Assembly (NCBI GenBank): GCA_963725665.1
Contig: CAVRZA010000003.1
Span: forward strand, 32,001 to 96,000
DNA: 64,000 bases
Direction of reading: 5' to 3'
DNA from: an uncultured Actinomycetes bacterium
GTDB lineage: Bacteria > Actinomycetota > Thermoleophilia > UBA2241
Part shown: one piece after another, positions 21,596 to 41,444 of the stretch
How positions within the stretch are numbered: the first letter of the stretch is position 1
Layout of the letters: the number at the start of each line of letters is the position of its first letter
Position numbers and translations under genes: made by a program
The notes under the pieces: model-generated
Told to the model about the DNA's origin: nothing
What the model saw: the letters and a program-made list of their open reading frames with translations, nothing else
The model's database searches: none

Positions 21596-21631
21596 CTCGG
21601 GCTCCCGGTGCGGATCCCAGCGCCCCGCGGC

Positions 21632-22000
21632 TCAGCTCAGCCGGTGCAGTCCACGTCGCCCGTAGACCGCCGAGGCTTCCCTCACGAGCGCCGCGCACAA
21701 CGGTGCGTTCGACGCCTCGAGACGGCGTGCGATGGCCTCTAGCTGCGCGAGCGACGCCCGGCCGGGTCGCAGCGCCTCGTAGATGGCGAGGACCTCTGCG
21801 TCATCGAGAGCCGTGAGCTCAGCGGCTCGTCGCAGGTTCTCGGCCAGCCGCGCGTTGCCGTGTTGTTCCGCGACGAGCGCCTGGTGGCGGAGCGTGTCGG
21901 GGTGGATCCTGAGGTCGTCCGGCGACAGGCTCCCGTGCGCTGCCGAGTCGATGGTGATCTCGGAGAGCGGGCGACCGGATAGAGCGTGAGCGTCAGTCAT
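21632..22000 (-). CDS. pduE: diol dehydratase small (gamma) subunit
   Basis: DLRIHPDTL..QA..AE, LAENLRRAAELT, IYEALRPGRAS; ATGA overlap with the large subunit gene. Confidence 0.9.
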   Translation of the reverse strand: MTDAHALSGRPLSEITIDSAAHGSLSPDDLRIHPDTLRHQALVAEQHGNARLAENLRRAAELTALDDAEVLAIYEALRPGRASLAQLEAIARRLEASNAPLCAALVREASAVYGRRGLHRLS

Positions 22001-24276
22001 TTGACCACCCTCAGATTGACCGGCGCGGCGCCTGGTACGCATTCGTCGCGCTCGATCGCCATCATCGCGACGACTTCGGCGTGGTAGCGCGCCTCGATCG
22101 CTTGCTCCGTGTAGGGATTGCGTATGGGAACGGGCCGCAGGCCCTTCGCGTGCCGGCCGGCGTTGGTGCCCAGGGCTCGGTACATCTCCTTCGTGACGAG
22201 CGGGGCGATCGAGTAGAGCTCGAGGCAGGCGAGAGGAGGAAGGTCACGGCGATGGATGAGAGCCGTGCCTTTCGCCTGAAGGCCGACACCGATCCCCGAG
22301 CCGGCCAGGCGCGCCCCGGTCAAACCGACCATCCCCAGGTCGATCGTCGACCCCACGCGGACGAGGCGCGCGATACATCCCTCTTCTTCAAGGCCGGCCA
22401 GGATCTGCCGCAGGACCTCTCCCACGGGCAGCCCCGACATCGTGATCCACAGCTTCGTGGCCAGCGCCGGAGACACCCCAACGCAGACCTCACGGGGATC
22501 GACCCCCAGCTCCGCCTCGCCCTGTTCGATTAGGCGAACGTGGCCCGCCCAAGTCGCCTGTTTCCTCAGCAGTTCCTCCCTGGACCGTTGCTGACGGATG
22601 CCGGCCATCTCGGTCCGCCGCGCCGCCGTCACCTCGTAGCCCGTCCCAGGCCCCTGGTAGTCGTTGGGGTCCGTGATCTTCGAGAGGACGTTCATCTCTT
22701 CGTCGAAGATGGCCGCCGTCTGCAGGTAGTCGCCGGCGACGCGTGCTCGCCCCATGGCGAGCACGCGTCGCGCCTCCTCCCGGAATCCGGTGCGATCCAG
22801 GGCGCGAACCACGTCGAGGATGCCCAGCTCCTTCTCCCGGATGGCATCCGCGGCCTCCAGCACGATCCCGGGGTCCAGCGGTGGCAGATCTTTCGAGCCT
22901 TCCGCGGCCACGACGGCGGCGACGTGGTCGTCTGCGAAGTCGGCCAGGCCCAAGTCGCGGTAGACGGCCTGCACGGCTTCGGCAGCCCGTTGCCGCACCT
23001 CGCGAAGCCGCGCCTCATCCACCGGTCTTAGGCCGCCCTCGACGCCCCAATCCCTCTGCATGACGAGGTAGTCGTCCAGGTCCTCGCCGTTGAAGTTGGA
23101 CGGGCCGAACATGTTGTCGTAGCGCACGATCGAGCCGAAGCCCGAGAACAGGAAGTCGGATCCGGCTAGGACAAGGGGCACCGTATGGGCCGTTCGCCTC
23201 ACGTCTGATTCGGACACCTGACTGTCGTTCCCCGAACAGGATTCGAGGTCGTGAAGCATCACGAGCAGGTTCTCGGCCAAGAGCTCGCGCATGCCGTCGG
23301 GAACCGAGGCAACCACGCTGGCGCCGTCGATGCCGCCGTTTTGCACGCCCTGGGATCCCATCGCCCGAGCCAGCGCGACGCACCTTGACTCGAGGTAGCA
23401 CATCGACTTGCCTTCGGCGGCGCCCATGAGCACCTCCGCGCCGCCGCCGCTCGTGACCCTCATCTTGAGACCGCGAGAGGCGTACGCAGAGCAAAGGAAG
23501 GCCTTCGACCAGGGTGTGTCGTCACCGTCGACGAACACCTGCTCGGTTCCGTACAGGGAGACGGTCTCGGCATACATGGTGAGGCCGCGGAGGCCAAGTT
23601 CGAGCTCGAGGGCCTCCTCTATGGAGCACTGGGTGAGCGCGCCTGCGGCGCCGACCTGCGACCCGATGAGCACGGCGAGAGCGTTCGAGGGGGCGTCCGC
23701 CAGGACGGGCACCGTCGTCTCGAGCTCCCTGAACCCGAACGCGACCGCCGTTGCGGCGTCGGCTGCCAGAAGGAGAGGGTCATCGAGCCGGTTCGTGACG
23801 TGCGCTTGGATCGATGGTGTGCGTCTGACCCTCATCTTCGCGATCGCCATCTGCAGCTCGACTGGGCGGAGTCGCGCCACGACACGTGCCAGCTTGGCCG
23901 GCGTCGCTCCTCCGGCGAGCCGTGCAACCTCCTCGCGAGGCGTCGAGGGGTCGACGATCAGTCGCGCGAACGCGATGTCGGCAAGGCCGTTCGCCTCGAT
24001 GGCGACCGATGTGTCGATCCCGTGGTCGGCGATGTAGGCATCGACGATGTCGAATCGATCCCTGGGCACGCCGTCCAGGAGCACAACGTGGCCCTCGGCG
24101 TCGATCTCTATAGAAGGATCGGGGTCGTGCCTGCTTGCGAAAGCGACGAGGCCCACGTCGTCATCCTCTTGGGAGAACCCGTCGAGGTTGACCGGTCGCT
24201 TGTCGAGCCCAAGAAGCCGGCCGAGCCTGAAGGCGGTGTCTCCGTCTCCGCTGGCTGTCGCGTGTCCTTTTGCCAA
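21997..24276 (-). CDS. pduC: B12-dependent diol/glycerol dehydratase-like enzyme, large and medium subunits fused
   Basis: RRTPSIQAHVTN, ELETT, YAETVSLYGT, DGDDTPWSKAFL, YDNMF, NDYQGPGTGY; then the beta domain ILAGLEEEG, GSGIGVGLQAKGT, LELYSIAP. Confidence 0.9.
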   Translation of the reverse strand: MAKGHATASGDGDTAFRLGRLLGLDKRPVNLDGFSQEDDDVGLVAFASRHDPDPSIEIDAEGHVVLLDGVPRDRFDIVDAYIADHGIDTSVAIEANGLADIAFARLIVDPSTPREEVARLAGGATPAKLARVVARLRPVELQMAIAKMRVRRTPSIQAHVTNRLDDPLLLAADAATAVAFGFRELETTVPVLADAPSNALAVLIGSQVGAAGALTQCSIEEALELELGLRGLTMYAETVSLYGTEQVFVDGDDTPWSKAFLCSAYASRGLKMRVTSGGGAEVLMGAAEGKSMCYLESRCVALARAMGSQGVQNGGIDGASVVASVPDGMRELLAENLLVMLHDLESCSGNDSQVSESDVRRTAHTVPLVLAGSDFLFSGFGSIVRYDNMFGPSNFNGEDLDDYLVMQRDWGVEGGLRPVDEARLREVRQRAAEAVQAVYRDLGLADFADDHVAAVVAAEGSKDLPPLDPGIVLEAADAIREKELGILDVVRALDRTGFREEARRVLAMGRARVAGDYLQTAAIFDEEMNVLSKITDPNDYQGPGTGYEVTAARRTEMAGIRQQRSREELLRKQATWAGHVRLIEQGEAELGVDPREVCVGVSPALATKLWITMSGLPVGEVLRQILAGLEEEGCIARLVRVGSTIDLGMVGLTGARLAGSGIGVGLQAKGTALIHRRDLPPLACLELYSIAPLVTKEMYRALGTNAGRHAKGLRPVPIRNPYTEQAIEARYHAEVVAMMAIERDECVPGAAPVNLRVVK

Positions 24277-27257: not shown

Positions 27258-27587
27258 CTACCCCGCTTTGGCCTGCGGTGCGATGAAGGCTCCCTCGCCG
27301 ACGAGCTCGCGCACCTTCAGCATCGCGAACACGTCTTCGACGGCGGGGGAGAGGTGGCGCGCCCGGAGCTGGATGCCCTGGGCTCGCAGGTCGAGGCAAA
27401 GACGCACGAAGATGCCGGCACCCGAGGAGTCGATGAAGCGGACCCCTGCGAAGTCCAGCACGGCCTGGTCGCTGCCCCGCACGGCGTCGCTTACGACCCA
27501 GCGCAGGGTCTCCGTGCAGTCCAGGTCTACCTCGCCCTCGAGGTAGATGATGGGGGCCACACCTTTGTCAACTCGCGTGTGCAGCAT
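27258..27587 (-). CDS. STAS-domain anti-sigma factor antagonist
   Basis: LEGEVDL, LDFAGVRFIDSSGAG with the phosphoacceptor Ser. Confidence 0.9.
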   Translation of the reverse strand: MLHTRVDKGVAPIIYLEGEVDLDCTETLRWVVSDAVRGSDQAVLDFAGVRFIDSSGAGIFVRLCLDLRAQGIQLRARHLSPAVEDVFAMLKVRELVGEGAFIAPQAKAG

Positions 27588-28371
27588 AGTCAGCCCTCTC
27601 CTTGATCATACGGTCGAGCATGAGCGTCGTCCCGTCGTTCCCGGTATGCAGTGAGACCTCTTCGAGGCTCTCGAGGATGAGCTTGTAACCGTAGCCCATG
27701 GACACCTGGTCGCCGCTGCCTTGCGGAGCGGTCCAGTTCAGGAAGCTGAGCCCCCGGCCGCGGTCCGAGACGATGGCGCGCAGGCGGTCGTCGAGGATGC
27801 GCAGAGCCACCGTGCCGGTGCCGCCGCCGTGGAGGATCATGTTGGTCGTCGCCTCGGAGACGGCGAGGATGAAGCCTTTGCGCGCGGCTTCACTCAGAGA
27901 GACCTCGGCCAGCGCCAGGTCGGCGGCGTTGCGCGTCATGGCCAGTGACGTCGAGTCGGTGACCGCGTGCGCGATCAGCTCGGAGCCGCGACTCCGCTCC
28001 GTGCTGAGCTCTTGCTCGTCGAGGAAGTGCAGCCTGCCCCGCGCGACAGCGGACGCCAGGTCGTTGAGGATGTCCAGCAGGCTGCGGCGGTGGTCGCCGT
28101 GATGGCGCCGCCAGCCGTTGGTGTGGATGCCCATGATCTCGCAGCGGTCGCCGCGGGGGATGAAGCAGAACTCGTCGCCGACGGCGTCGTTGTAGTCGGT
28201 GATGGTGTGGCAGACGAAGCTGCGCAGGTTCATGGCCTCGCGGGCCCGCTCGATCAGGTCCGCCGGTGGCAGCGGCGAGAGGGCGCCGCCGACGACGATG
28301 CGCAGCGTGTCGCTGCCCGCGTCGTAGCGGAAGACTTGCAGCGTCACGGGTGTGCGCTTGGGTCCCATCAT
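27568..28371 (-). CDS. RsbW/SpoIIAB-like anti-sigma Ser kinase with an unknown N-terminal domain
   Basis: LAVSEATTNMILHG (N box), VSDRGRG (G1), MGYGYKLI (G2), GTTL. Confidence 0.85.
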   Translation of the reverse strand: MMGPKRTPVTLQVFRYDAGSDTLRIVVGGALSPLPPADLIERAREAMNLRSFVCHTITDYNDAVGDEFCFIPRGDRCEIMGIHTNGWRRHHGDHRRSLLDILNDLASAVARGRLHFLDEQELSTERSRGSELIAHAVTDSTSLAMTRNAADLALAEVSLSEAARKGFILAVSEATTNMILHGGGTGTVALRILDDRLRAIVSDRGRGLSFLNWTAPQGSGDQVSMGYGYKLILESLEEVSLHTGNDGTTLMLDRMIKERADYAAHAS

Positions 28372-28482: not shown

Positions 28483-30042
28483 TCACGTCACCTTGATGAG
28501 CAGCAGGGTCAGGTCGTCCGCCGGGGGCATGCCGCCGCGAAAGTCGGCGACCTCGGTGAGGACAGTCTCGAGGATGGCCTCGGGCGCGTCGGCACGCACG
28601 CGGCGCAGGCACGCGCACAGGCGCTCGACGCCGAAAAGCTCACCGGCGGCGTCGCGCGCCTCCGTCACCCCGTCGGTGTAGAGCGCGACGAGGTCGCCGG
28701 GGCTCAGCCTGAGTGTGTCCTCGGGGAAGTCGAGCCCCGGCCGGACGCCCAGCAGGCTGCCGCGGGCCGCCACTCGGCGCTCACCTTCGTCCCCGAACAC
28801 CAGCAGAGGGTTGTGACCGCCGCCGGCCACCGTCAGGCGTCGCCGTGCGGGATCGTAGAGTGCGTACGTGAGCGTGAGGAACGAGGGCAGCGCCTGGCCC
28901 TCGAGGTCGCGCGCGAGGCCGTCGTTCACCTCTGCCAGCACGCGGCCCGGCGAGCGTCGCGCGCGAGCCGCCTGGTGCAGCAGTGAACGAGCCATGGCCA
29001 TGATGAGGGCCGCCGCGAGCCCCTTGCCCATCACGTCGCCGCAGGCGATCGCCAGGTGGCCGTCGTCGAAGTCGAGGAAGTCGTAGTAGTCGCCGCCCAT
29101 CTCCGTCATGAACTCGATCCGGGCGGCGAACTCGAGGCCCTCGACCACAGGGGACTCCTTGGGCAGCAGGTCGAGCTGGATCTGTCGGGCTCGCTCGATC
29201 TCGGCGGCCACTTTGCGCTGCGTCTCGGCGAGCCGCTCGTGGAGCCGCGCGGTGGCTACGAGCTCGTCCTTGAACGACGCCAACGCCGCGGTGTGGGACT
29301 CGCGATCGCGGGCGCGGCTGGCGTAGATCTCGTAGGAGTAGTAGATGAGGAACAGCGGTGGCAGGGCGAGCAGTAGACCGGGAAGGCCGAGCGCGAGGTA
29401 GAGGCCGGCCACGAGCAGGCTGAGCGACGCACCCGTGAGGTAGCTCGGCAGCCCCCATTGGTAGTTGCGCTGCCACACGCGCAGGGCGCTCTCGCCAGTC
29501 GCCAGCGCGATGACGCCGGCAAGCACGACCGTGTTGGCCAGGAAGTCGACGCCAGTCGCGGCGAACGCGGGTAGCACGCGGTCGGTGAAGGTGGCCGTCA
29601 GGGGCACGAGGGCGACGTACAGCGCACCGCCGAGGAACGTCGAGAGCACGTGGTTGGCCACGTTGAAGACGATCTTCTGGGGGTCGTGCGTGAGCCAGGC
29701 CGTGGCGAGCCCCGAGGCGATGGCCACAAGGAGGGCGGGGAAGAGACCGAAGACGATCAGGGCGGCGAGGATGAGGACGAACGACAGCGTCACCACGCCG
29801 ACGCCCGGCAGGCGGACCTCGCGCAGATCGGCGAAGGCGGCGAGGGCGATGAAGGCGATGAGGGCCGGCGTGACCTCTCCGCTGTGGCCGGCCAGGGCCA
29901 GGCCGACCACGGCCGCGGCGACAACGGCGGCTACGTACAGTGAGACGGCCGCGCGTTGCCGCGCGGCCGTCTCACTGCCGGGCTGCGCTGGGGCGCCGAC
30001 TACTGACCGTCGATCATCGTCGTCCAGGAGTACTTGGTCCAT
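28483..30042 (-). CDS. membrane-anchored SpoIIE/PP2C phosphatase (start uncertain)
   Basis: About 7 TM helices, coiled coil ARQIQLDLLP, GGDYYD, GDVMGKG, YTDGVTE, DDLT; the nearest in-frame ATG upstream of the first TM helix is at 30042, inside the upstream gene. Confidence 0.88.
   Translation of the reverse strand: MDQVLLDDDDRRSVVGAPAQPGSETAARQRAAVSLYVAAVVAAAVVGLALAGHSGEVTPALIAFIALAAFADLREVRLPGVGVVTLSFVLILAALIVFGLFPALLVAIASGLATAWLTHDPQKIVFNVANHVLSTFLGGALYVALVPLTATFTDRVLPAFAATGVDFLANTVVLAGVIALATGESALRVWQRNYQWGLPSYLTGASLSLLVAGLYLALGLPGLLLALPPLFLIYYSYEIYASRARDRESHTAALASFKDELVATARLHERLAETQRKVAAEIERARQIQLDLLPKESPVVEGLEFAARIEFMTEMGGDYYDFLDFDDGHLAIACGDVMGKGLAAALIMAMARSLLHQAARARRSPGRVLAEVNDGLARDLEGQALPSFLTLTYALYDPARRRLTVAGGGHNPLLVFGDEGERRVAARGSLLGVRPGLDFPEDTLRLSPGDLVALYTDGVTEARDAAGELFGVERLCACLRRVRADAPEAILETVLTEVADFRGGMPPADDLTLLLIKVT
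29938..29977. other. perfect 18-bp hairpin at the protease/phosphatase junction
   Basis: CAGTGAGACGGCCGCGCG-GCAA-CGCGCGGCCGTCTCACTG on the minus strand (GNRA loop). Confidence 0.8.
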
Positions 30043-31628
30043 GAGTACTTCGTCCACGAGTACTTGGTCCACGAATACTTCGTCCAGGAATACTTCGTCC
30101 ATGAGTACTTGGTCCATGAGTACTTGGTCCACGAATACTTCGTCCACGAGTACTTCGCCCAGTTCACCAGCACGTCGGGAGGCAGGATGGTCGAGCCATC
30201 GCCAAGGTCGGCCGAGAGCGCCGGCCCGTCAGCTCGCATGTGGTTGGCGAGCACCGACGGCGTGTCGACCGCGCCGGCCCCCTGCACCGCCGACGACACA
30301 CCGGCCAGCGGACGCGCGCTCGCCATCAGGCGCACCTTCACGTCGTCGGGCGTGAGTCTTGGGTCGCGCTCGAGCATGAGGGCGGCGACTCCGGCCACGA
30401 CCGGCGCGGCTGTGCTCGTCCCGGAGAGCTTGAAGTAGGCAGGCTTCTCCCAAGCGGGAGCGGTGGGAGCGTAGAGGGACACCGGGATGCGGTTGTCGGG
30501 CCAGGTGCGGTCGACGAAGCTGCCCTTCACACGCAGCGAGATCAGACGGTTGCCGGGTGCGACGATGTCGGGCTTCGCGAACTCGTCGAACAGCGTCGGT
30601 CCGATCGAGCTGTAGCCGCACACGGCGTCGTCGTCGAGCGTCGCCGTCTGCTTCGTATCGAGCGCGCCGACGGTGATCGCCAACGGGTCGTTGCCGGGAG
30701 AGAGGATGCCGCCGTTGCCGAACTCACCTTCGTTGCCGGCGGCGCAGATGACGACGATGCCCGCTCTCCACGCGGCCTCCACGGCCTTTGCCAGGGGATC
30801 GTCCGAGACCGGCCCGGGAATGTCCCCGCCGGCCGAGATGTTCAGCACCCTGATGTGGTACTCGTTCTTGTGGCGGATGGCCCAGAGGATGCCCCTGATC
30901 ACGTCGGAAGCTCTACCCTGCCCGTACCTGTCGAGGACCTTGATGGCGACGATGTTGGCGCCGGGAGCGACGCCGCGGAACTGCTGCGTCGCGTAGCCGC
31001 CCTGATCGACCGGCAGCGAGGCGGTGCCGTCGCCTGCGATCAAACCGGCGACGAACGTGCCGTGCCCGGCGTCGTCGTACGGATGTCTCTTGCCCTTGAC
31101 GAAGTCGACCCAGCCGACGAGGCGCGAGCCATGAAGGTCGGCGGTCTCGTCGATGCCGCTGTCGATCACGGCGACCGTGACCCCCCTGCCCGTGGGTCCG
31201 CCGTCCCAGGGGGCGGGCAGCCGACCCAGTCCTATCGTCAGATTGGTCACGTCCATGGTGCTCGCGTAGTCGGCGGCGAACACGGTGGGGTCGGACGTGA
31301 TCGCAGTGACGTAGGGAAGCTCCGCCAGGGAATCGACCTGCTCCGCCGTGAGGGGTGCAGCGGCGGCCTTCACCACGTCGAGGGGCTCGGCGTCCGGAGT
31401 GGACGAAAGCGCCCCCATCACGTCGTCGACGTGTCCCGGCGCGTAGACGATGACGGGGACGGCCTCGCCGGGCGAGGCGGCCAGCGCCGCCGTGACTGCG
31501 GGGTCGACCTTCGTCGCCGTGTCAGGCCTCGCCGTCGGCGAGCCCCACTTGGCCGCCCACGCCGGCGAGGCCAGCGCGAGCAGCAGAAGGAGTGTGACCG
31601 CGACCGCGGCCTGGTAGCGCCTTCTCAT
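30000..31628 (-). CDS. secreted S8 subtilisin-like serine protease with C-terminal (KYSWT)x9 tail
   Basis: Sec signal MRRRYQ...ASPAWA; VAVIDSG, HGTFVAG, AAGNEG, SGTSTAAP catalytic motifs; GGAGG RBS. Confidence 0.93.
   Translation of the reverse strand: MRRRYQAAVAVTLLLLLALASPAWAAKWGSPTARPDTATKVDPAVTAALAASPGEAVPVIVYAPGHVDDVMGALSSTPDAEPLDVVKAAAAPLTAEQVDSLAELPYVTAITSDPTVFAADYASTMDVTNLTIGLGRLPAPWDGGPTGRGVTVAVIDSGIDETADLHGSRLVGWVDFVKGKRHPYDDAGHGTFVAGLIAGDGTASLPVDQGGYATQQFRGVAPGANIVAIKVLDRYGQGRASDVIRGILWAIRHKNEYHIRVLNISAGGDIPGPVSDDPLAKAVEAAWRAGIVVICAAGNEGEFGNGGILSPGNDPLAITVGALDTKQTATLDDDAVCGYSSIGPTLFDEFAKPDIVAPGNRLISLRVKGSFVDRTWPDNRIPVSLYAPTAPAWEKPAYFKLSGTSTAAPVVAGVAALMLERDPRLTPDDVKVRLMASARPLAGVSSAVQGAGAVDTPSVLANHMRADGPALSADLGDGSTILPPDVLVNWAKYSWTKYSWTKYSWTKYSWTKYSWTKYSWTKYSWTKYSWTKYSWTTMIDGQ
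30021..30155 (-). repeat. nine 15-bp coding repeats encoding KYSWT
   Basis: Units start every 15 bp from 30021 to 30141; all differences are at third codon positions. Confidence 0.97.
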
Positions 31629-31741
31629 GGTCCGTCCCTCCACACCCTGCTCCGTTGGCTTCGCCGCTCTCGCCGAACGAGCGGGCTGGTCCTGTCGCGA
31701 AGGGGCGCCCGTGCCGGAAGGCCGTGAGGAGGGTCGGGTGG

Positions 31742-31820
31742 TTCGGCGGCCGAGCTATCTTGCCGTCGGGCAAGACCTCTAGCTTTGCGTCCCTGCCTCA
31801 CAGCAGGTTTGCCCTTTCGT
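31742..31820 (-). promoter_or_regulatory. c-di-GMP-I (GEMM) riboswitch
   Basis: Minus strand GAAAGGGCAAACCTGCT-GTGA-GGCAGGGACGCAAAGCTAGAGGTC...GATAGCTCGGCCGCCGAA matches the GGCAAAC...GACGCAAAGC...GATAGC...CCGA consensus. Confidence 0.88.
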
Positions 31821-32161
31821 TGGGAGAAGTATCGACTGCGCGGCGCGACAAGATTAGACGAACGTTCTACATGTGTAGCCGGTGCGGCGACGTATCCAGC
31901 GCAAGAGGCGTCCGGAGGGCCGACGCCCTGTCAAGGGGCCAAGAACATGGGATTCAGCTACAGGAAACGTACTCTACGCAGGCTTTACACTGAATGGAGT
32001 ATGCCAAGGTGTACTACCCTTCGGAAGCCTTGTTTGGGCGATGGTAAGATAGCCCGGTCAACAGGGGCCAGCGGCAGGAGGATCGGCGGTGACCCTCAGC
32101 AGCCGTGTTGCGCTGGGGTGACGGTCCGGCGGGGTCGGGAGCTACGAGGGAAAGGAGCGCC

Positions 32162-33517
32162 ATGAGTCGGACGGACGGCCTCTACACGGCGGTGCAGAGG
32201 CGCCTCATCACCGAGATCCTCAAACTGGCGACGAGCGACAACAAGAAGAACATCGTGCGCGCCTTCGAGCTGGCCGAGAGGATCACCCCCGACAACCACA
32301 AGTACGAGATGCGCTTCGTCAGGGAGAAGGTCGAGACCGACCACCCCGCCCTCAACATCGCGCGCCACGTCATCAACCTGACGCCCAAGTGCCGCGACGG
32401 CTTCATCAACGCCTTCGTCTTCAACTGTCTTCTTCGCGGTTCGCAGAAGCGTCAGGACTTCAACAAGCGCACCGGCATCCCGACGCCGTTCGTGGTGCTC
32501 ATGAGCCCGACGATGCGCTGCAACCTCACCTGCGAGGGCTGCTACGCCGCCGAGTACTCGCCCGACAGCGACATGACCACCGAGCTCATGCAGAGTATCG
32601 TCGAGCAGGCCAACGACATGGGCGTCTACCTGTTCACGATCCTCGGCGGCGAGCCCTTCGTGCGTGAGGACCTGCTCGACTTCTGCGCCGCCAACCCCGA
32701 CGCCTACTTCCAGATCTATACCAACGGCACGCTCCTCGACGACGAGACGATCGCGCGTATGGCCGACGTCGGTAACGTGGCGCCCATGCTGAGCATCGAG
32801 GGCGACGAGGAGATGACCGACGAGCGCCGCGGGCACGGTGTGTACCGGGGCCTCATGGAGGCCATGAACAAGCTGCACGACGCCGGCATCCTCTTCGGCT
32901 ACTCGGCCACGGTGACCAAGAAGAACTGGTCGATGCTGGTCAGCGACGAGTTCGTCGATCCGCTCGTGGCCAAAGGCGCCTCGATCTCGTGGCACTTCCT
33001 CTACATGCCGGTGGGCCGCGACCCCGACACGACCCTCATGCTGACCCCGTCTGAGCGCAACGAGTTCCGTCTCGGCATCGACCGCATCCGCTCGACCAAG
33101 GCGATGTTCCCCATCGACTTCTGGGGCGACGCGCCGTGGGTCAAGGGCTGCATCGCCGGCAAGCACTACATCCACATCAACAACGAAGGCTGGGTCGAGC
33201 CCTGCATCTTCTGTCACTTCGCCACGCACAACGTCAAGGAGTCGACTCTGGCGGAGGCCTTCGGGGCGCCCTTCTTCCAGGAGATCCGCAGGCGCCAGCC
33301 GTTCAACCACAACCTGCTCATGCCGTGCATGCTCATCGACAACCCGACGATCTCGCGCGAGATCGTCGAGGTGACGGGGGCTCGTCCCACGCACGACGGC
33401 GCCGAGGTGATGCTCACCGAGCTGCGCAAGGAGCTCGACGAGTACGCGGCCGAGGTCGAGCGCGTCTACGACCCGATCTGGTCGTGCATGTCCGGCAAGA
33501 AGCCTGAAGAAGACTGA
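32162..33517 (+). CDS. radical SAM/SPASM domain protein
   Basis: CNLTCEGC, GGEP, TNG, and SPASM CIAG...VEPCIF...PCMLID; AAAGGAG RBS. Confidence 0.92.
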   Translation: MSRTDGLYTAVQRRLITEILKLATSDNKKNIVRAFELAERITPDNHKYEMRFVREKVETDHPALNIARHVINLTPKCRDGFINAFVFNCLLRGSQKRQDFNKRTGIPTPFVVLMSPTMRCNLTCEGCYAAEYSPDSDMTTELMQSIVEQANDMGVYLFTILGGEPFVREDLLDFCAANPDAYFQIYTNGTLLDDETIARMADVGNVAPMLSIEGDEEMTDERRGHGVYRGLMEAMNKLHDAGILFGYSATVTKKNWSMLVSDEFVDPLVAKGASISWHFLYMPVGRDPDTTLMLTPSERNEFRLGIDRIRSTKAMFPIDFWGDAPWVKGCIAGKHYIHINNEGWVEPCIFCHFATHNVKESTLAEAFGAPFFQEIRRRQPFNHNLLMPCMLIDNPTISREIVEVTGARPTHDGAEVMLTELRKELDEYAAEVERVYDPIWSCMSGKKPEED

Positions 33518-33572: not shown

Positions 33573-33660
33573 GTTTCCGTTTCGGCGCCGCGTGGTACTG
33601 TCTAGGCTCCCGTTGCAGGACAAGGCTGCGTCGGGCTCTGTCGGGTACCAGGAGGTCAAC

Positions 33661-34239
33661 GTGGAGCCACAGCATCGCGCCGCCGCGAGTAGCGCCCTCC
33701 GCGCGGCAGTCGGCGCTTCTCTCATCACCGCCCGCGCCGCCCTGTGGGTCGCTCCTCTCGTCGTCCTTGTCGCGGCGGTGGCGCTCGTCGTCGGTTGCGG
33801 CAGCACGACCGTGACGACGCTGTCGCCAGCGGCGAGCGTGTCACCGAGCGCGAGTCCGTCGTCGGCGCTGCCTGTCTACGACGAGTCGATCGGTGGCATC
33901 TATCAGATCGCCGGCGTCGAGCTCGAGCCGGGCGACGATACCGTGCGGCTGGTCTTCGTCGCGCCGGCGGCCGCCGAGCGGCCGCTCGTGCGACTGCGGC
34001 CGAGAGCCGGCGCCGTCGACATCGTGATGACCGACTCACGACCGCTGCCCGCCGTCGTCCACACGTACCCCGGCGGCGACGGCCCGATCGTCAGAGGGCG
34101 GTTCGTCTTCCCGCCCGACGACGCGACGGTCTACTTCCGTCTCAGGCTGCGCGGCGGGGCGACGGACGATGCCAGCTCCATGGTGTGGGAGACGCTCAGC
34201 CCGAGTGTCATGCGGCTCGCTGTGAAGGTGAGCCACTGA
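33661..34239 (+). CDS. hypothetical lipoprotein
   Basis: GGAGG RBS, hydrophobic stretch ending LVVGC, Ser/Thr/Pro linker. Confidence 0.6.
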   Translation: MEPQHRAAASSALRAAVGASLITARAALWVAPLVVLVAAVALVVGCGSTTVTTLSPAASVSPSASPSSALPVYDESIGGIYQIAGVELEPGDDTVRLVFVAPAAAERPLVRLRPRAGAVDIVMTDSRPLPAVVHTYPGGDGPIVRGRFVFPPDDATVYFRLRLRGGATDDASSMVWETLSPSVMRLAVKVSH

Positions 34240-34382: not shown

Positions 34383-36920
34383 GTGAGCATGGACCCGAAC
34401 GAAGGCATGCGCGGCGGCGGTCTCAAGTGCGTTCCCCGAGCGGTCGCTCTCTCCACGCGGCACCCCAGACGGCCTCACAGGAAGCGCGCGGGGCGGCTCG
34501 CCCTCGTGACGTCGCTGGTCGCGGCCGCCGCGTTCTGCGCGGTGTGGTCCGCACCGCGCGTCAGCGCGTCGGCCTCCTCGTGGCTCGCCACTCCCACAAC
34601 TACGGCGCGTCTGGTCGCCGTGCCGCTGCCCGCCGCGGTAAGCGGCGCGAGCGGCGCGCTCCGCCTTGGCGCCGACGGCGGCGCCGCTCGCGCCGCCTCC
34701 CCGCGTGCGATCGACGCCGGTCTGCGCTTCAACATGCTCGGCGTGCTGCTGAAGAGCAGTCGTCCCTACGACCCAGATCTCGACGTGCGCGTGAGGACGA
34801 GCCTGGACGGCGTCACCTGGAGCGATTGGATGCGCCTCCGGTTCGTGAGGAGCGAGGGCACACCGGGAAGCGCCTTCGACCGCAACGACACCTGCTCCGA
34901 ACCGTTGTGGGTCGGTGAGGCCCGCTACCTGCAGTACACGGTCGGGCTGACCTCGGGCGCTACCGCGGTCGACGTGTCGAACGTGCGCTTCTCGTTCATC
35001 AACACGCTCGGTGACGCCGGTGCGGGCGACGCGCTCGTGAGCACGCTGAAGCGCAGCCTGTCGTTCGTCGCCGGCATCGGTCATGTGACGCCGGCGCTCT
35101 CCCTGGCCGCTCGTCCGCCGATCGTGACACGGGCCCAGTGGGGCGCCGATGAGAGCCTGCGCTCCGGCAGCCCCAGCTACGCCGCGCTACGCATGGTGTT
35201 CATCCACCACACGGCCGGCGGCAACAGCTACTCGCGGTCAGAGGCTCCGGCAGTGGTGCGCGGCGTCTACTACTACCACACGCGCGTGCACGGCTGGTCG
35301 GACATCGGCTACAACTTCCTCGTCGACCGCTACGGCACCATCTACGAAGGACGCTACGGAGGCATGACGCGCGGAGTCGTGGGTGCGCAGGTTCTCGGCT
35401 TCAACACGCACAGCGCCGGCGTCTCGGTGATGGGCACGTTCGATCAGGCGCCGCCACCGGGTGCGGCCGTCTACGCGCTCGAGAAGTTGATCGCCTGGCG
35501 GCTCGACGTGGCCCACGTGAACCCGCTCGGCCAGGCACGCATGACCTGCTCGACGAGCGATCGGTACGCCGCGGGCAAGACCGTCACCTTCCCGGTCATC
35601 GCCGCCCACCGCCAGGCCAACTACACGAGCTGCCCGGGGAACGCCTTCAACGCCGTTCTACCGGAGATCCGCGCCGCGGTGGCGCAGCGGGGTCAGCCGA
35701 AGATCTACGCTCCCTCCTCGTCGGCCACGGCCCTCAGCCCCGACGGTGACGGTGTCGGCGACATCGTCACGCTGACGGCGGTGCTGTCCCAGACGGCGGA
35801 CTGGACGATCGACATCGAGGGCACGGGAGGGGCCGTGGTGCGCCAGTTCTCCGGTCGGGGCAAGGCCATCGAGGCGTCATGGGACGGACGCGACGGGGAT
35901 GGAGCACCGGTCGCCGACGGTCCCTACGACATAGTCATGACCGGCTCGAACGCCCACGGCGTGACTAGGTCGGCGGTGGTGAGGATCATCGTCGACACGG
36001 TGCCGCCGACGGTCAGCGGGGTGGGCGCGACACTGGCCGTGAGCCCCAACGGCGACGGTATCGGCGACGTGAGGGCCGTCGCTTATGCGGTGAACGAAGC
36101 GGGGCGTGTCCGGGTACGGGTCTACGACAAGGATGACGTCCTGGTGCGCACTGTTCTTGCGGCGCTGTGGGTATCGCCGGGCTCTCACTCGGTGACGTGG
36201 GACGGCAAGGTCTCCTCTCCATCGGGCCTCGTGCCCGCGCCCAGCGGAAGCTACACGGTGCGCGTCAGGGAGGTCGACGCCGCCGGCAACGCCGGCAGCG
36301 GCAGCGGGCCGGCCAAGGTGAATCTGACCCTCGGATTCCCCAAGGCGGCGCCGCGCTACTTCTCGCCCAATGGCGACGGTGTTCGCGATACCAGCCTGCT
36401 CGGCTTCAAGCTTGCCCTGGCCGCATCGGTCAAGGTCGTCGTCAAGGACGCCTCCGGGGTCGTGCGCAGCTTCTCTCTGGGCGCTCTGCAGCCGGGCGCC
36501 GCCGGCGCTACCTGGGACGGCAACACCGATGCCGGCAGGGCTCCCGGCGGCGGCTACACGTTCACCGTCACGGCCACCAACTCCCTGGGCGCCATCACGG
36601 TGTCGGGCCCCATCTCCCTCGACCGCTACGTCCCCCGGTCGAGCGTGCCGGCCGACTTCTCGATCGCCCGCGGCAGCAGGATCGGCTACGTCTACTCGGT
36701 GAAGGACCCGTACGCGAAGGACGTGTACGTGCACGTCGAGGTACGCAGCGGCAAGGGCGTCCTTCTCGCGAACCTCATCCCCGGCTGGGTGATGACGGGC
36801 GTGCGGCACAAGATCTCGTATCGGCCGCCGGGCCGCGGCACGTACGTCTTCACGCTCTACGCCCGGGACCGCGCCGGCAACGTGGCCGCGCCGGCAACGA
36901 CTACCGTCAAGGTGCGCTAG
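34383..36920 (+). CDS. N-acetylmuramoyl-L-alanine amidase (Amidase_2) with FlgD-Ig-like repeats
   Basis: TRAQWGADE, IHHTAG, WSDIGYNFLVD, HRQ...TSCPG; three SPxGDG...WDG repeats. Confidence 0.88.
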   Translation: MSMDPNEGMRGGGLKCVPRAVALSTRHPRRPHRKRAGRLALVTSLVAAAAFCAVWSAPRVSASASSWLATPTTTARLVAVPLPAAVSGASGALRLGADGGAARAASPRAIDAGLRFNMLGVLLKSSRPYDPDLDVRVRTSLDGVTWSDWMRLRFVRSEGTPGSAFDRNDTCSEPLWVGEARYLQYTVGLTSGATAVDVSNVRFSFINTLGDAGAGDALVSTLKRSLSFVAGIGHVTPALSLAARPPIVTRAQWGADESLRSGSPSYAALRMVFIHHTAGGNSYSRSEAPAVVRGVYYYHTRVHGWSDIGYNFLVDRYGTIYEGRYGGMTRGVVGAQVLGFNTHSAGVSVMGTFDQAPPPGAAVYALEKLIAWRLDVAHVNPLGQARMTCSTSDRYAAGKTVTFPVIAAHRQANYTSCPGNAFNAVLPEIRAAVAQRGQPKIYAPSSSATALSPDGDGVGDIVTLTAVLSQTADWTIDIEGTGGAVVRQFSGRGKAIEASWDGRDGDGAPVADGPYDIVMTGSNAHGVTRSAVVRIIVDTVPPTVSGVGATLAVSPNGDGIGDVRAVAYAVNEAGRVRVRVYDKDDVLVRTVLAALWVSPGSHSVTWDGKVSSPSGLVPAPSGSYTVRVREVDAAGNAGSGSGPAKVNLTLGFPKAAPRYFSPNGDGVRDTSLLGFKLALAASVKVVVKDASGVVRSFSLGALQPGAAGATWDGNTDAGRAPGGGYTFTVTATNSLGAITVSGPISLDRYVPRSSVPADFSIARGSRIGYVYSVKDPYAKDVYVHVEVRSGKGVLLANLIPGWVMTGVRHKISYRPPGRGTYVFTLYARDRAGNVAAPATTTVKVR

Positions 36921-40000: not shown

Positions 40001-40473
40001 ACGGCACGCCGGTGTCGCTCCTCATGATCGACATCGACGACTTCAAGCCCTTCAACGACACGTACGGCCATCCTCAAGGCGACAAGCTGCTGCAGGAGAT
40101 GGCCGACATACTGCGCGCCGGGGTGCGCCAGCAGGTCGACCTGGTGGCGCGCTACGGGGGGGAGGAGTTCGTCGTGCTTCTGCCGAGCACCCCCTCGGGA
40201 GGGGCCGAGGTGGCCGCCGAACGTCTGCGCGAGGACATCCGCGACCCGCGCACCGCCGAGGCGGTCGCTGAGGCCATCCGCTCGGCCATGGCGAACAGCC
40301 GCTTCGAGGGATACCCGCGGCGCAAGGAGGTGCCGGTGACGGTGAGCATCGGCGTCGCCTCGTACCCGAGCCACGCCGCCGATGCGAAGGAGCTCATCGT
40401 CAACTCCGACCGGGCGCTCTACGTGGCGAAGCGTCAGGGTAAGAACCAGACCTGCGTGTACGGCGTCGACTGA
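37030..40473 (+). CDS. diguanylate cyclase with N-terminal MerR/BldC-like HTH and about five GAF domains
   Basis: LTVTQAADLLGV...RTAGGHRRY; repeated GAF motifs (VPLxYxGE.IG); TDGLTGLYN, DIDDFK, ARYGGEEF. Confidence 0.92.
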   Translation: MAKSFKTRRGAVAVDEWLTVTQAADLLGVAAHTLRDWTAKGVVEASRTAGGHRRYRKADLERFRAARAEADSLDDVFHRLNELSTLAGVSQAVFSALELEELLPLVCQKLVETMGCTGAVISDFDAEAGDVVTAWEHATGDATWRPGTRYALRDYPATRRVVERQGSYVANLNDPAVDPAERDVLVADGNQSALVLPLVYKGETIGIVECFDRARERSYSQGELALARAICDRIAVAVYNSRLFDRLRRQNDDLELVLDAVKAIGSSRDLQEALETIARRLTEAMDVAWCDIYDYDPARQDLTVVAYYQVPSVPPSPGWLGTRFTPEEWSDLRRAIEQHETTLLQASDPTLPEPMRAALEAWSEKSTMTVPLLYEGELVGVLDIAESRWERVFSENDVRLVQAIAAQATSVVHNMRLYDQTRRRNRELQLLLDTGEVIASSMNLPDALGKVTEWLTHALDVAWADIYEYDPGSDELRVLAFYQIEGVPSSEGWLDTSIPSDLLSEWHRSIHERCAVTVYAEDPRLPARDLAEMEKWGERATLVVPLIYREEVIGLLDVAESRFQRRFGEEEARLVLAIANQLGLAVHNLRLFEATRRRSEELAAALRITETVTSSSDVDTVLHTVVSTLRESLNLSWCEIYDFDPASGILSLAAHSYLEPLDLGDWDGVYSIDEAPTLAGAVAEKRPLVAYVDDPALPPDTRADMQRWGDKASLYVPMVYGGEVVGVVYGAEVRGLRRFSADDIRLATLMAAQAAAVIETARGRARELADREQLARFNRRLNSLVEFSSEMRGLVEVDDLVALLGRVVTEALELRQWALYLHDAESDSFRVSGALGVDRAMSDHYKGLVVPAAALRGLIADATPISSSFFVDHRVHTWSDEENAFFKAVDFGSGIDGEWHTEDTLFVPMVSEKGQLIGYLEAYDPVDRQLPSEELVRHLEVFAGKAASTLELLRLYGQLEEQATTDGLTGLYNHRHLLQRVEEEVAKARRYGTPVSLLMIDIDDFKPFNDTYGHPQGDKLLQEMADILRAGVRQQVDLVARYGGEEFVVLLPSTPSGGAEVAAERLREDIRDPRTAEAVAEAIRSAMANSRFEGYPRRKEVPVTVSIGVASYPSHAADAKELIVNSDRALYVAKRQGKNQTCVYGVD

Positions 40474-41349: not shown

Positions 41350-41444
41350 CGCCGGTCATCCTCCTCGGTGAGCCGGTCCTCACGGTCGGCGGAAGGCACC
41401 CGTCGTCGCGGCCGCTTGGAGGGGCAGTATCCTCGCCTTCTGTT

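Follow-up and report, generated by a model that had tools for sequence, protein, structure and literature searches.

We have analysed a window of 64,000 nucleotides from an uncultured Actinomycetes bacterium (Thermoleophilia; UBA2241), corresponding to positions 32,001-96,000 of the forward strand of contig CAVRZA010000003.1 in assembly GCA_963725665.1. The source is a soil actinobacterium, whose genome assembly comprises 12 contigs. The reverse strand carries an open reading frame at 30000..31643 for an S8 (subtilisin-like) peptidase, identified from the ORF list and Pfam, with 547 codons counted from a GTG at 31643; the likely start is the ATG at 31628 (MRRRYQ...). The Pfam model Peptidase_S8 (PF00082) matches residues 152-456 with 162.3 bits against a cut-off of 21.8, and the closest solved chains are the subtilisin-like proteases 9ues_B and 3afg_A (E ~1e-50). 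An alignment of 58 sequences shows no variation at the Asp-His-Ser triad or the oxyanion Asn (D161, H194, N304 and S410), and AlphaFold2 gives a confident model of the catalytic core; judged by its residues, the protease is catalytically intact. A predicted signal peptide, MRRRYQAAVAVTLLLLLALASPAWA, was read from the translation at residues 6-30 (31554..31628, reverse strand), and the consensus of the 58 homologues has a matching n-h-c layout with an AxA end. Assignment as a type VII secretion mycosin (TIGR03921) was rejected, with a score of 160.7 bits against 278.75 and a C-terminus that is a repeat tail and not a hydrophobic helix.

The ORF translation ends in ...LVNWA-(KYSWT)x9-TMIDGQ*. 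Nine 15-bp units fill 30155..30021 exactly, giving (KYSWT)x9 at residues 497-541 (30021..30155, reverse strand). The original prediction had placed a unit WAKYS before the array. The array is indeed capped at both ends, but the in-register lead-in is LVNWA (30156..30170, reverse strand), in which W495 is invariant in the 58-sequence alignment, and the cap is TMIDGQ (30003..30020, reverse strand), followed by the stop TAG at 30002..30000. The cap has the form [TVI][LMV][ILV][EDQ]G[QEKR] in 119 of 120 homologues.

The protease gene heads an operon, all on the reverse strand. Its 5' leader contains a c-di-GMP-I riboswitch aptamer at 31742..31823 (Rfam RF01051, clan CL00126), which matches the whole model, 1-87, with 65.9 bits (E 1.1e-10; gathering score 35) and lies ~100 nt upstream of the protease start on the strand of the gene. 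In five of eight orthologous loci the S8 gene is preceded by c-di-GMP-I-GGC, a member of the same clan. The next gene (28483..30042, start uncertain) encodes a fusion of a MASE9 membrane domain and a PP2C phosphatase of SpoIIE type. Its frame is open through the tail, and the nearest in-frame canonical start, the ATG at 30042..30040, arises from a TCA-TGG codon pair in unit 8. Pfam SpoIIE scores 179 bits on this protein; MASE9 (PF20972) scores 24.3 bits, equal to its cut-off of 24.3, and 25 bits in the genome search, over a region in which short loops connect six to eight hydrophobic stretches. A conserved stem-loop (29939..29976, reverse strand) lies ~30 nt past the protease stop, within the first phosphatase codons; RNAalifold on 19 loci predicted 10 pairs, and compensatory double changes occur at 4 of these. 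No Rfam family scored above gathering on the stem-loop, and no T-run terminator was seen.

Downstream, an RsbW/RsbA-like HATPase_c_2 kinase or anti-sigma-type protein (27568..28371; Pfam and NCBIfam, HATPase_c_2 34.5 bits) is followed by a STAS anti-sigma-antagonist-type protein (27258..27587; Pfam STAS 47 bits; TIGR00377 48.9 bits, under the 53.45 cut-off). Together these two genes and that of the PP2C phosphatase make up the set of an RsbU/RsbV/RsbW-type partner switch, and the order S8, MASE9-PP2C, HATPase_c_2, STAS is kept in eight of eight loci. No sigma-factor domain was found among the Pfam-scanned neighbouring genes. The divergent gene at 34383..36920 on the forward strand, given for context, encodes an N-acetylmuramoyl-L-alanine amidase with FlgD-Ig domains (Pfam); it adjoins the protease in six of the eight loci L001-L008 and in L023.

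The tail carries a charge of +9 and 18 aromatics in 45 residues, making it the most aromatic 45-residue stretch among the 1689 ORFs of the genome (the runner-up has 15). Its summed Wimley-White interfacial energy is -13.8 kcal/mol. The protease body is acidic (D 41 and E 12, against K 14 and R 21). The whole-protein AlphaFold2 model, from 58 sequences, gave pLDDT ~25 in the tail, and the tail folded alone gave pLDDT 55 with secondary structure absent; the models suggest that it lacks an autonomous fold. A 76-residue tail segment matched no Pfam family at E up to 10, nor did the tail match NCBIfam models or PDB sequences. Membership of the pentapeptide-repeat families of A(D/N)LXX type (Pfam Pentapeptide, Pentapeptide_4 and others) was rejected on the same zero matches at E up to 10. 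Choline-binding and GW wall-anchor repeats were also rejected, as those Pfam families are absent for both protein and tail; the likeness is functional only.

Silent diversity within the array

All nine units encode Lys as AAG and Trp as TGG. Tyr is encoded by TAC 6 times and TAT 3 times, Thr by ACG 5 and ACC 4 times, and Ser by TCG 4, TCA 3 and TCC 2 times. The nine units fall into six DNA haplotypes with no amino-acid change, and over all 36 unit pairs the Nei-Gojobori method gave pS 0.667 and pN 0. The codon counts and these values bear out the claim that nine KYSWT units differ purely at silent sites. Tandem Repeats Finder reports a period of 15, 9.5 copies, 87% matches and no indels.

At least five mutational steps are required for the six haplotypes. 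Given that 8/45 of the single-base changes in a unit are silent, the probability that all five steps would be so is ~0.178^5 = 2e-4. The silent sites are mixed approximately as independent draws from the codon usage of the genome. Two rare codons are over-represented, TAT at 3/9 in the array against 9.4% genome-wide (p 0.046) and TCA at 3/9 against 3.9% (p 0.004), p values that are only rough because the units are not independent; the remainder of the protease gene has TAT in 0/11 and TCA in 0/28 positions. All of the variation is silent in the protease frame and non-silent in the overlapping frame.

No public contig was found that covers the whole array. Partial contigs from relatives span 30022-30146 without indels, and all four listed differences within the array are silent third positions.

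The repeat family in homologues

Among the best 120 homologues every tail carries K[YF]xW[TS] units, 4-13 in each. Position 1 is K in 1100 units and R in 4, position 2 is Y in 561 and F in 543, position 4 is W in 1104 of 1104, and position 5 is T in 1033, S in 69 and A in 2. Position 3 (x) is S, A, T, G, R or K, depending on lineage. Four of the five unit positions and the cap are therefore conserved family-wide. Thus purifying selection acts at the protein level as proposed, but not on the exact pentapeptide: K/R-[YF]-x-W-[TS] is constrained while x varies between lineages. The degenerate or missing tails that had been named as evidence against selection did not appear, at least 4 canonical units being present in each of the best 120 homologues and the cap in 119. 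The expectation that arrays would be lineage-specific and internally homogeneous held in its first part, for x, but not throughout in its second, since some arrays mix KYAWT with KYKWT or contain acidic spacer units. Many show a super-repeat of three units, two basic and one acidic.

At the DNA level, the majority unit in each of 19 distinct orthologous arrays occurs as 2-7 haplotypes that differ only silently, including family switches between TCG and AGC for Ser and between CGN and AGR for Arg. These silent haplotypes, with pS 0.67 and pN 0 in the window, support the view that the array is not a recent slippage product. The DNA pattern of the tail was found in 18 of 151 genomes of the class, and a reversed control pattern gave 0 matches; the Thermoleophilia counts are not independent because all come from one family of related MAGs. 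Only one genome, G122, has a single unit, possibly by assembly collapse. No stand-alone gene for a repeat peptide was found, the one match among 564 short candidates being a protease fragment.

Net charge per unit stays near +1 across homologous arrays (range 0.71-2.0, median 1.0). When an array consists of +2 units (x = R or K), its spacers contain a median of 3-5 acidic residues; arrays of +1 units have none.

Coupling of the protease to MASE9

In 12 of 16 loci the phosphatase has a GTG or ATG start that overlaps with the stop codon of the protease. The PP2C orthologue occurs in 22 of the 151 class genomes, all within the tail-bearing family, and both genes are absent from G002 and G014 (98% complete). 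The protease and MASE9-PP2C genes are present or absent together, and the operon partner that counts is the MASE9-PP2C gene, not the divergent radical SAM gene (32105..33517).

MASE9 is a rare domain: the 3.7-Mb genome has 2 matches. With a profile of the MASE9 region of the window, MASE9 proteins confirmed by Pfam were retrieved from other phyla at E 1e-50 to 1e-99. In the wider S8 clade, 5 or more Trp occur within the last 160 residues in 92 of the 115 nearest full-length cluster representatives, with period 6 in 44 of these tails and period 5 in 10. S8 relatives in Acidobacteriota carry tails of other repeats, with units of 5 or 6 residues, and mostly lie beside MASE9 proteins. Across the other phyla a MASE9-like gene flanks 45 of 77 loci (31 of 49 where each side extends for 3 kb or more), and 31 of these genes lie directly downstream on the same strand; a nearby MASE9 gene is absent for 14 of 39 W-tailed S8 genes with full flanks. 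The pairing thus recurs in another phylum. The tails in other phyla are mostly neutral or acidic (SVVWGN, NVTWD, GVLVGD), and in the Acidobacteriota cassettes the output of the MASE9 protein is HD-GYP-GAF-GGDEF. A stand-alone MASE9 form of ~250 residues also occurs.

Discussion

The KYSWT array is translated and under selection, and forms the C-terminal module of a predicted-secreted S8 peptidase with intact catalytic residues. It is the cationic five-residue version, in one Thermoleophilia family, of a broader class of tails with 5- or 6-residue units, usually with one Trp each, and a small G-[DE]/[DE]-G-Q cap end. Such tails mark a clade of S8 peptidases whose genes share a cassette with that of a MASE9 integral-membrane sensor. 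This pairing is widespread and previously undescribed. If this holds, an unmodelled C-terminal repeat module is common on the subtilases of soil bacteria (92 of 115 nearest representatives and all of the best 120 homologues); the tailed proteins are annotated plainly as 'S8 family peptidase' or 'AprX' because the module is absent from Pfam and NCBIfam. The protease-MASE9 cassette would be present in two phyla with three different outputs, and would offer a concrete candidate for what MASE9 senses. The array would also be a clean natural case of a frozen protein repeat with fully scrambled silent sites and a charge-per-unit rule across unit types, useful for thinking about how short coding repeats are shaped by selection and by concerted evolution.

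What does the tail do? We tentatively favour a selected structural or adhesive role, by which the protease stays next to its MASE9 partner at the membrane or envelope. In such a mechanism c-di-GMP would switch the operon via the leader riboswitch, and the protease would be exported and lose an I9-like propeptide. The tail, with its +9 charge, 18/45 aromatics and no fold of its own, would tether the acidic catalytic domain to the membrane or envelope on its anionic outer side. There the MASE9-PP2C phosphatase, encoded by the overlapping next gene, would be the neighbour of the protease, whose surface activity or encounters might feed the phospho-switch of PP2C, RsbW-like kinase and STAS protein. 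Export, retention at the surface or membrane, contact with MASE9 and the direction of signalling are all things that we infer. Several observations weigh against an anchor. A simple interfacial anchor needs composition only, not a fixed residue order or a conserved cap; since most tails in other phyla are neutral or acidic, electrostatic anchoring cannot be the class-wide function; and the 14 of 39 fully flanked W-tailed genes that lack a nearby MASE9 gene fit poorly. Moreover an unfolded aromatic tail should suit its own subtilase as a substrate, and explanations based on cleavage fit that at least equally well.

One of these, which we consider unlikely, is a polyprotein of peptide ligands, in which the protease cuts its own tail once per unit, in cis or in trans, and MASE9 senses the pentapeptides (e.g., SWTKY). 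A cut at W-T-K-[YF]|x places Trp at P4 and Tyr or Phe at P1, the classical subtilisin preference; the peptides would enter the membrane interface and act as a lineage-specific signal. This would account for arrays that are identical within a lineage and different between lineages, for Ser at x in 9/9 units of the window despite saturated silent sites, and for the tight genetic coupling to a sensor that has no known ligand and is predicted to bind one inside the membrane. The triad is intact, and the tail would be accessible to the protease because it is unfolded in the models. However, many arrays are mixed (KYAWT/KYKWT) or have acidic spacers lacking the basic residue, the lead-in and cap are given no role, and the charge-per-unit rule is not predicted. 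The lack of a stand-alone peptide gene among the 564 candidates, the W-G or aliphatic hexapeptide tails of relatives, which do not have the same cleavage logic, and the 14 of 39 genes without a MASE9 neighbour also count against it. An equally doubtful proposal is a strict structural repeat or removable extension with no signalling role of its own, either a stalk like a beta-solenoid or beta-roll that folds only with a partner, ion or oligomer, or a C-terminal propeptide for folding, export or inhibition. Hydrophobic residues at positions 2 and 4 and polar ones at 1, 3 and 5 resemble pentapeptide-repeat faces, the six-residue units of relatives match the hexapeptide pattern (V-G-D-G-V-L, W-G-N-S-V-V), many arrays have the three-unit super-repeat, and a terminal cap is typical of solenoids. 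Sub-threshold matches point the same way, with Pentapeptide_4 at 18.6 bits (cut-off 38) for the NVTWD tail and Hexapep at 14.2 bits (cut-off 27) for the GVLVGD tail, as do language-model neighbour clusters with Hexapep in 16-28% of members, taken as leads only. Against this, AlphaFold2 gave no fold with or without an alignment, the tail of the window has no Pfam match (E up to 10) or PDB sequence match, and solenoid repeats are usually degenerate, not identical; inward-facing Trp and Tyr or Phe would probably overfill the canonical pentapeptide-repeat helix.

Two further explanations carry much less weight. Modification of a repeated peptide core by the radical SAM/SPASM enzyme, for instance through Trp-Lys crosslinks at W-T-K, is very unlikely. 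W-x-K is a type of motif crosslinked by such enzymes (WGK, streptide and darobactin chemistry), and the gene and that of the protease diverge head-to-head in the window, in 6 of 8 loci and in 14 of the 18 genomes of the class sample that have tails. Yet tails occur without the enzyme, G050 and G110 having no orthologue at E <= 1e-40 and G044 having it on another contig, and orthologues of 55-65% identity occur in G002, G014, G040 and G130, all of which lack a protease orthologue and where the gene lies amid unrelated genes for a permease, TrkA, a P-type ATPase, a molybdo-enzyme and DNA repair. The enzyme scores far below maturase models (WgkB 56.8 against 650, KxxxW 41.5 against 500, DynA 43.8 against 450), and the substrate would be a 547-residue, presumably exported enzyme rather than a leader-core peptide. 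The idea is largely refuted by this distribution, neither a maturase-model match nor co-conservation having emerged. That the repeat is neutral, or a product of assembly or slippage, is hardly credible. In-array collapse or frameshift is likely in the related MAG loci L006/L013 and in G122, and copy number ranges over 4-13. Nevertheless pN is 0 with pS at 0.67, the tail is conserved in all of the best 120 homologues, and the DNA pattern found in 18 of 151 class genomes has no counterpart in the reversed control.

It is conceivable, if improbable, that the Trp-rich tail or self-cut unit peptides form the input of MASE9, entering the membrane interface and being read inside the membrane. If this were so, protease and sensor would be a self-contained extracytoplasmic signalling pair, whose outputs have been swapped in evolution between a PP2C switch (Thermoleophilia), HD-GYP/GGDEF c-di-GMP enzymes (Acidobacteriota) or none. 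Such a pair would provide the first proposed ligand for a domain of MASE type, and in bacteria an example of a signal polyprotein that carries its own processing protease.

Comparison with known systems

The choline-binding repeats of LytA-type amidases and the GW modules are non-covalent surface anchors of secreted hydrolases in Gram-positive bacteria. The KYSWT tail is likewise an aromatic and basic C-terminal array of variable copy number on a predicted-exported hydrolase, with presumed retention in the envelope. However, its units have 5 residues rather than ~20 or ~80, with no sequence or HMM match and no predicted fold. With pentapeptide repeats and the hexapeptide left-handed beta-helix (PF00132) it shares a period of 5 (6 in relatives), alternation of hydrophobic and polar residues and a terminal cap. 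It differs in units that are identical rather than degenerate and in Trp and Tyr/Phe replacing Ala and Leu; the tail of the window has no Pfam match at E 10, and relatives have sub-threshold ones only. Kexins of the S8 family cut tandem-repeat precursors such as yeast alpha-factor and the fungal ustiloxin type, and the borosin OphMA is an enzyme-fused precursor. Identical short peptide copies on one predicted-exported chain and an S8 protease are common to both systems, but in the present case the protease itself carries the repeats, with no dibasic spacers and no co-conserved modifying enzyme.

SiaABCD of Pseudomonas aeruginosa comprises the membrane PP2C SiaA, the kinase SiaB, the STAS-like SiaC and the diguanylate cyclase SiaD (10.1101/674879, PMC8457831). 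As far as the parts of these accounts that we consulted go, both systems have a partner switch of membrane PP2C, kinase and antagonist-type protein tied to c-di-GMP and apparently not to an adjacent sigma factor, while a protease and repeat tail are not described for Sia. The SiaA model is weak on the phosphatase of the window (59 bits against a cut-off of 700), and the tie to c-di-GMP is here the leader riboswitch, and in Acidobacteriota an HD-GYP-GAF-GGDEF output on MASE9. The sections consulted of the MASE9 description (Galperin and Chou, bioRxiv 10.1101/2021.11.05.467447) give short, poorly conserved outer loops with ligand binding expected within the membrane, and name neither a ligand nor a protease partner. 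[quoted passage not shown] In Firmicutes, the PPEP family and CbpA are surface proteases and adhesins controlled by c-di-GMP riboswitches (PMC8610288, PMC7423583). According to the portions of these papers that we consulted, a protease or surface protein lies under a c-di-GMP riboswitch there too, and some PPEP homologues have non-covalent wall anchors. The PPEP enzymes are metalloproteases with different anchors and without the partner switch and MASE9, whereas the enzyme described here is a serine protease encoded beside both.

The KYSWT array is a silently diversified protein repeat

The S8 subtilisin-like peptidase of the window is encoded on the minus strand at 30000..31643. Its open reading frame of 547 codons has the C terminus LVNWA-(KYSWT)x9-TMIDGQ-stop, and the nine 15-bp units exactly fill 30155..30021 (minus strand). 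Tandem Repeats Finder reports a period of 15, 9.5 copies, 87% matches and no indels. Lysine is always encoded by AAG and tryptophan by TGG. The other residues use TAC (6) and TAT (3) for tyrosine, TCG (4), TCA (3) and TCC (2) for serine, and ACG (5) and ACC (4) for threonine, so that the count over nine units reproduces the codon use described in the original prediction. The nine units form six DNA haplotypes with a single protein sequence, and over all 36 unit pairs pS = 0.667 and pN = 0. The units are indeed identical in protein and diversified only at silent sites, as had been claimed.

Six haplotypes require at least five changes, and 8 of the 45 possible single-base changes are silent. 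On this basis the chance of five silent changes out of five is p ~ 2e-4 (our own arithmetic). Third-position heterozygosity across the units is 0.72 for serine and 0.56 for threonine, close to the 0.71 and 0.58 that we calculate for independent draws on the codon usage of the genome, indicating that the silent sites have been effectively randomized. The array also includes codons that are rare in this genome, which is 68% G+C. TAT makes up three of nine tyrosine codons, compared with 9.4% genome-wide and none of 11 in the rest of the protease gene, and TCA three of nine serine codons, compared with 3.9% genome-wide and none of 28 in the rest of the gene.

The variation alters residues in the overlapping reading frame and is silent in the protease frame only, and the protease frame is therefore the one under selection. 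In the overlapping frame of the downstream PP2C gene, xW (where x is the third position of the pentapeptide) always reads NTG, and hence the "silent" third position of the x codon is not wholly free. Public sequencing runs yielded no contig spanning the array; the best run held 28% of the sampled words.

The tail is attached to a protease with an intact active site

The protease matches Pfam Peptidase_S8 at 162 bits, and the closest solved chains are subtilisin-like proteases (E ~ 1e-50). Mycosin is the best NCBIfam model, and was rejected at 160.7 bits against a cut-off of 278.75. All 58 aligned sequences share D161, H194, N304 and S410. The N terminus has a signal-like sequence, and in the AlphaFold2 model residues 62-117 form a beta-alpha-beta-beta-alpha-beta region resembling an I9 propeptide; Inhibitor_I9 gives weak matches in two relatives. 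The array is firmly established as a selected protein module of a predicted-secreted protease with an intact active site.

In the protease body acidic residues outnumber basic ones (D 41, E 12, K 14, R 21). Its tail carries a charge of +9 and 18 aromatics per 45 residues, the densest aromatic 45-residue stretch among the 1689 open reading frames of the genome. An AlphaFold2 model of the whole protein, using a 58-sequence alignment, has a well-modeled catalytic core and a tail pLDDT of ~25. Folded alone, the tail has a pLDDT of 55 and no secondary structure. It has no Pfam match at E up to 10, and none to NCBIfam or to PDB sequences. Its neighbors in the ESM Atlas, at about 0.9, are all clusters of short hypothetical proteins.

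Orthologous tails conserve four positions of the unit and a terminal cap

A word-seeded homolog search scored 8000 candidates, 4366 of them at E ≤ 0.001. Degenerate or missing tails among orthologs, which would have spoken against the original prediction, were not what we found: all of the best 120 of these 4366 end in the same kind of tail, and 119 terminate in a cap [TVI][LMV][ILV][EDQ]G[QEKR], the single exception appearing to be cut within the array. The named proteins among the 120 are from Thermoleophilia MAGs. The number of canonical units per protein ranges from 4 to 13, with a median of 9. Counted over these units, lysine fills position 1 in 1100 and arginine in 4; position 2 has Y in 561 and F in 543; position 4 is W in 1104 of 1104; and position 5 has T in 1033, S in 69 and A in 2. 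At x there is A, R, K, G, S or T. The majority unit has R or K at x in KFRWT (35 proteins), KYRWT (16), KYKWT (11), KFKWT (7) and KFKWS (1); the others are KYAWT (21), KFAWT (19), KYAWS (6) and KYSWT (4). In the sequences compared, the cap and four of the unit positions are constant; x differs by lineage. The expectation of purifying selection stands, given the values of pN and pS; that it acts on the exact pentapeptide does not hold across the family.

Internal homogeneity is less general: every in-register unit after the first is identical in 30 of the 120. Arrays with R or K at x include acidic spacer units (EYEWA, DVAWT, GVSWT), often as each third unit, which keeps the net charge per unit close to +1 for every unit type (median 1.0, with a range of 0.71-2.0; median total charge +12).

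We also examined 19 distinct arrays from public genomes at the DNA level. The majority unit always occurs as 2-7 haplotypes with solely silent differences, which include Ser TCG/AGC and Arg CGN/AGR switches. Some arrays of the KFKWT types have runs of DNA-identical units, indicating that recent duplication also occurs. One locus (fetched as L006 and L013; genome G104) has a frameshift within the array, and one MAG (G122, locus L037) a one-unit tail of KYAWT plus cap. Tandem repeats are prone to assembly collapse, and both cases may be of this origin.

In the sampled genomes the tail is confined to one family of the class

We searched 151 genomes sampled across the class with a DNA pattern encoding W[TS]K[FY]xW[TS]K[FY]xW[TS]. 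It matched 18, all from one family (17 of 25 plus the genome of the window), with one locus in each; the reversed control gave no match in the 151. The Thermoleophilia genomes are all related MAGs, and these counts are therefore not independent. In 401 genomes of a phylum sample, a looser pattern found only the genome of the window and two spurious matches, one containing a stop codon, and its reversed control matched three genomes. A six-frame search of the window's own genome revealed no second array. Among 564 candidate stand-alone repeat peptides (<300 residues, KYSWT-type words), the only one found was a C-terminal fragment of the protease.

The protease and a MASE9-PP2C gene form a conserved operon

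The gene order is a divergent amidase, then the protease, MASE9-PP2C (28483..30042 counted from a putative start, minus strand), an RsbW/RsbA-like HATPase_c_2 protein and a STAS protein. The order from protease to STAS is kept in eight of eight orthologous loci; the divergent amidase is present in six of these, and in a further locus, L023. Of the 151 class genomes, 22 have an ortholog of the PP2C gene. All 22 belong to the family with the tails: 21 of 25, and the genome of the window. Two 98%-complete genomes of this family lack both protease and PP2C.

In 12 of 16 placeable loci the protease stop is overlapped by a GTG or ATG (caGTGa); a TGA stop occurs in these 12 and in none of the other four. 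The stop in the window is TAG, and the nearest canonical in-frame PP2C start is the ATG at 30042..30040 (minus strand), which arises where the rare TCA codon in unit 8 adjoins TGG. A conserved G+C-rich stem-loop lies at 29939..29976 (minus strand), ~30 nt past the protease stop and inside the first PP2C codons; its distance from the stop varies among loci by multiples of three only. Over 19 loci (the window and 18 orthologous), 4 of its 10 predicted pairs show compensatory changes. Comparison with Rfam gave miRNA-like sub-threshold noise and no family. There is no T-run at the stem-loop, and no canonical promoter or terminator was found. Possible roles of the element are attenuation, a part in processing or stability, or the slowing of PP2C translation.

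The protease leader contains a c-di-GMP-I riboswitch aptamer (31742..31823, minus strand; 65.9 bits, gathering 35). Five of the eight orthologous loci have the clan variant c-di-GMP-I-GGC upstream of their protease gene; no riboswitch reached the gathering score in L001, L003 and L004. In L001 an nhaA-I RNA motif was seen downstream of the cassette (12940-12997, minus strand; 44.9 bits, gathering 37). A few kb from the c-di-GMP-controlled operon of the window, 37030-40473 (plus strand) encodes a MerR-HTH, four-GAF and GGDEF protein, a putative diguanylate cyclase, and in L002 a partial match to its GGDEF end lies near the cassette.

The neighboring radical SAM gene is incidental to the tail

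The product of 32105-33517 (plus strand) is an orphan radical SAM/SPASM protein, extended at its N terminus by ~125 residues. The gene lies head-to-head with the protease in the window, in six of the eight loci and in 14 of the 18 tail-positive genomes. Two genomes (G050 and G110) keep KFKWT tails and have no ortholog at E ≤ 1e-40, and in a third (G044) it is on a different contig from the protease. Orthologs at 55-65% identity occur among unrelated genes in protease-less genomes, and they extend to three families of the class in unrelated contexts. The protein scores far under every maturase model and under every NCBIfam cut-off, the best being NirJ2/AhbD at ~87 bits. Distribution and gene context rule out an obligate link to the tail, and together with the low maturase scores they lead us to take the gene as a neighbor by descent. 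That it is incidental to the tail is firmly shown.

Between this gene and the amidase is a 215-residue open reading frame (33592-34239, plus strand) with a lipoprotein-like LVVGCGS motif and no Pfam or NCBIfam match. Elsewhere in the window, the large and medium subunits of a diol/glycerol dehydratase (19853-24276, minus strand) are fused in one 759-residue open reading frame adjoined by a reactivase-like protein, and a 547-residue open reading frame (41380-43023, minus strand) matches no Pfam family at E ≤ 0.001.

Pairing with MASE9 extends to a wider S8 clade

An exhaustive HMMER search with the catalytic body alone returned 77107 proteins at E ≤ 0.001. After clustering at 50% identity the tailed family is one representative. 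The next 149 are from other lineages, at 40-69% identity over matched stretches; higher identities among them are fragments of the tailed family itself. Of 115 representatives with at least 480 residues, 92 have five or more Trp within the last 160 residues. Trp spacing 6 dominates in 44 (SVVWGN, NIVWGD, SAMWGS, QALWGD) and spacing 5 in 10 (NVTWD, QVQWD, DAAWD), and the tails usually terminate in ...G[DE][QNK]. No Pfam or NCBIfam model covers the tail in any of the ten such proteins scanned. The searchable literature, which leaves subscription journals outside, yielded no description of repeat tails with either the Thermoleophilia units or those of the relatives.

We fetched 77 wider-clade loci (L041-L117), mostly Acidobacteriota. 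We derived a profile from the MASE9 region of the Thermoleophilia proteins, ran it for two rounds and compared a subset of its matches with Pfam. A MASE9-like open reading frame was found in 45 of the 77 loci and not in 32; where each flank measures 3 kb or more, the figure is 31 of 49. In 31 loci this frame lies directly downstream on the same strand, the spacing running from slight overlap to a few tens of bases, in nine it is divergent upstream, and in five elsewhere in the flank. The genome of the window has two MASE9 matches, the second (G000:C2:65923-66504, plus strand; 23.6 bits) with no S8 peptidase adjacent. Since MASE9 is rare, chance adjacency to an S8 gene should be well under 1%. 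Complete genes with full flanks comprise 25 with both W-periodic tail and MASE9, 14 with the tail only, six with MASE9 only and four with neither. Most of the six have aliphatic hexapeptide tails (GVLVGD, GLMLSD, GVITGD); the repeat tail is absent from L109, and L061 looks truncated. The pairing is not universal. For the KYSWT array of the window, it is firmly shown that the true partner is the MASE9 gene.

The wider-clade partners are, by Pfam, MASE9-HD-GYP-GAF-GGDEF proteins or stand-alone MASE9 of ~250 residues. In 12 Acidobacteriota cassettes no c-di-GMP riboswitch was found; these are tied to c-di-GMP through the output domain. Recurrent neighbors of the L041-L117 cassettes are sigma-54 activators, one of which has a PilZ domain, and Reg_prop/Y_Y_Y histidine kinases.

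Possible functions of the tail

What might such a tail do? Our leading reading, to which we give somewhat less than an even chance, is that the cationic aromatic tail retains the acidic enzyme on the surface of the membrane or envelope, next to MASE9-PP2C. A phospho-switch would then have a protease under c-di-GMP control at its input. This reading fits the charge rule, the aromatic and cationic composition and the lack of an autonomous fold. Three points count against it: the order of residues is strict and a cap is present, relatives have neutral or acidic tails, and a tail of this kind should be cut by any subtilase that is active. Cutting is the essence of one alternative, in which the tail is cleaved into a peptide ligand; we consider this unlikely. 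The paper defining MASE9 (Galperin and Chou, bioRxiv 10.1101/2021.11.05.467447) leaves the ligand unnamed and expects binding within the membrane. The tail could also serve as a structural repeat or propeptide, which we regard as similarly improbable. Leads toward a solenoid are the polar-hydrophobic-polar-Trp-polar pattern, the six-residue relatives that fit the hexapeptide rule, sub-threshold Pentapeptide_4 and Hexapep matches in relatives, and the language-model neighbor clusters, a minority of whose members have Hexapep; the AlphaFold2 models described above give the tail no confident fold.

In line with retention at the membrane, synthetic peptides of the (KW)n and (RW)n types are reported to act on membranes, to an extent that grows with their length (PMC3509626, PMC4999427).
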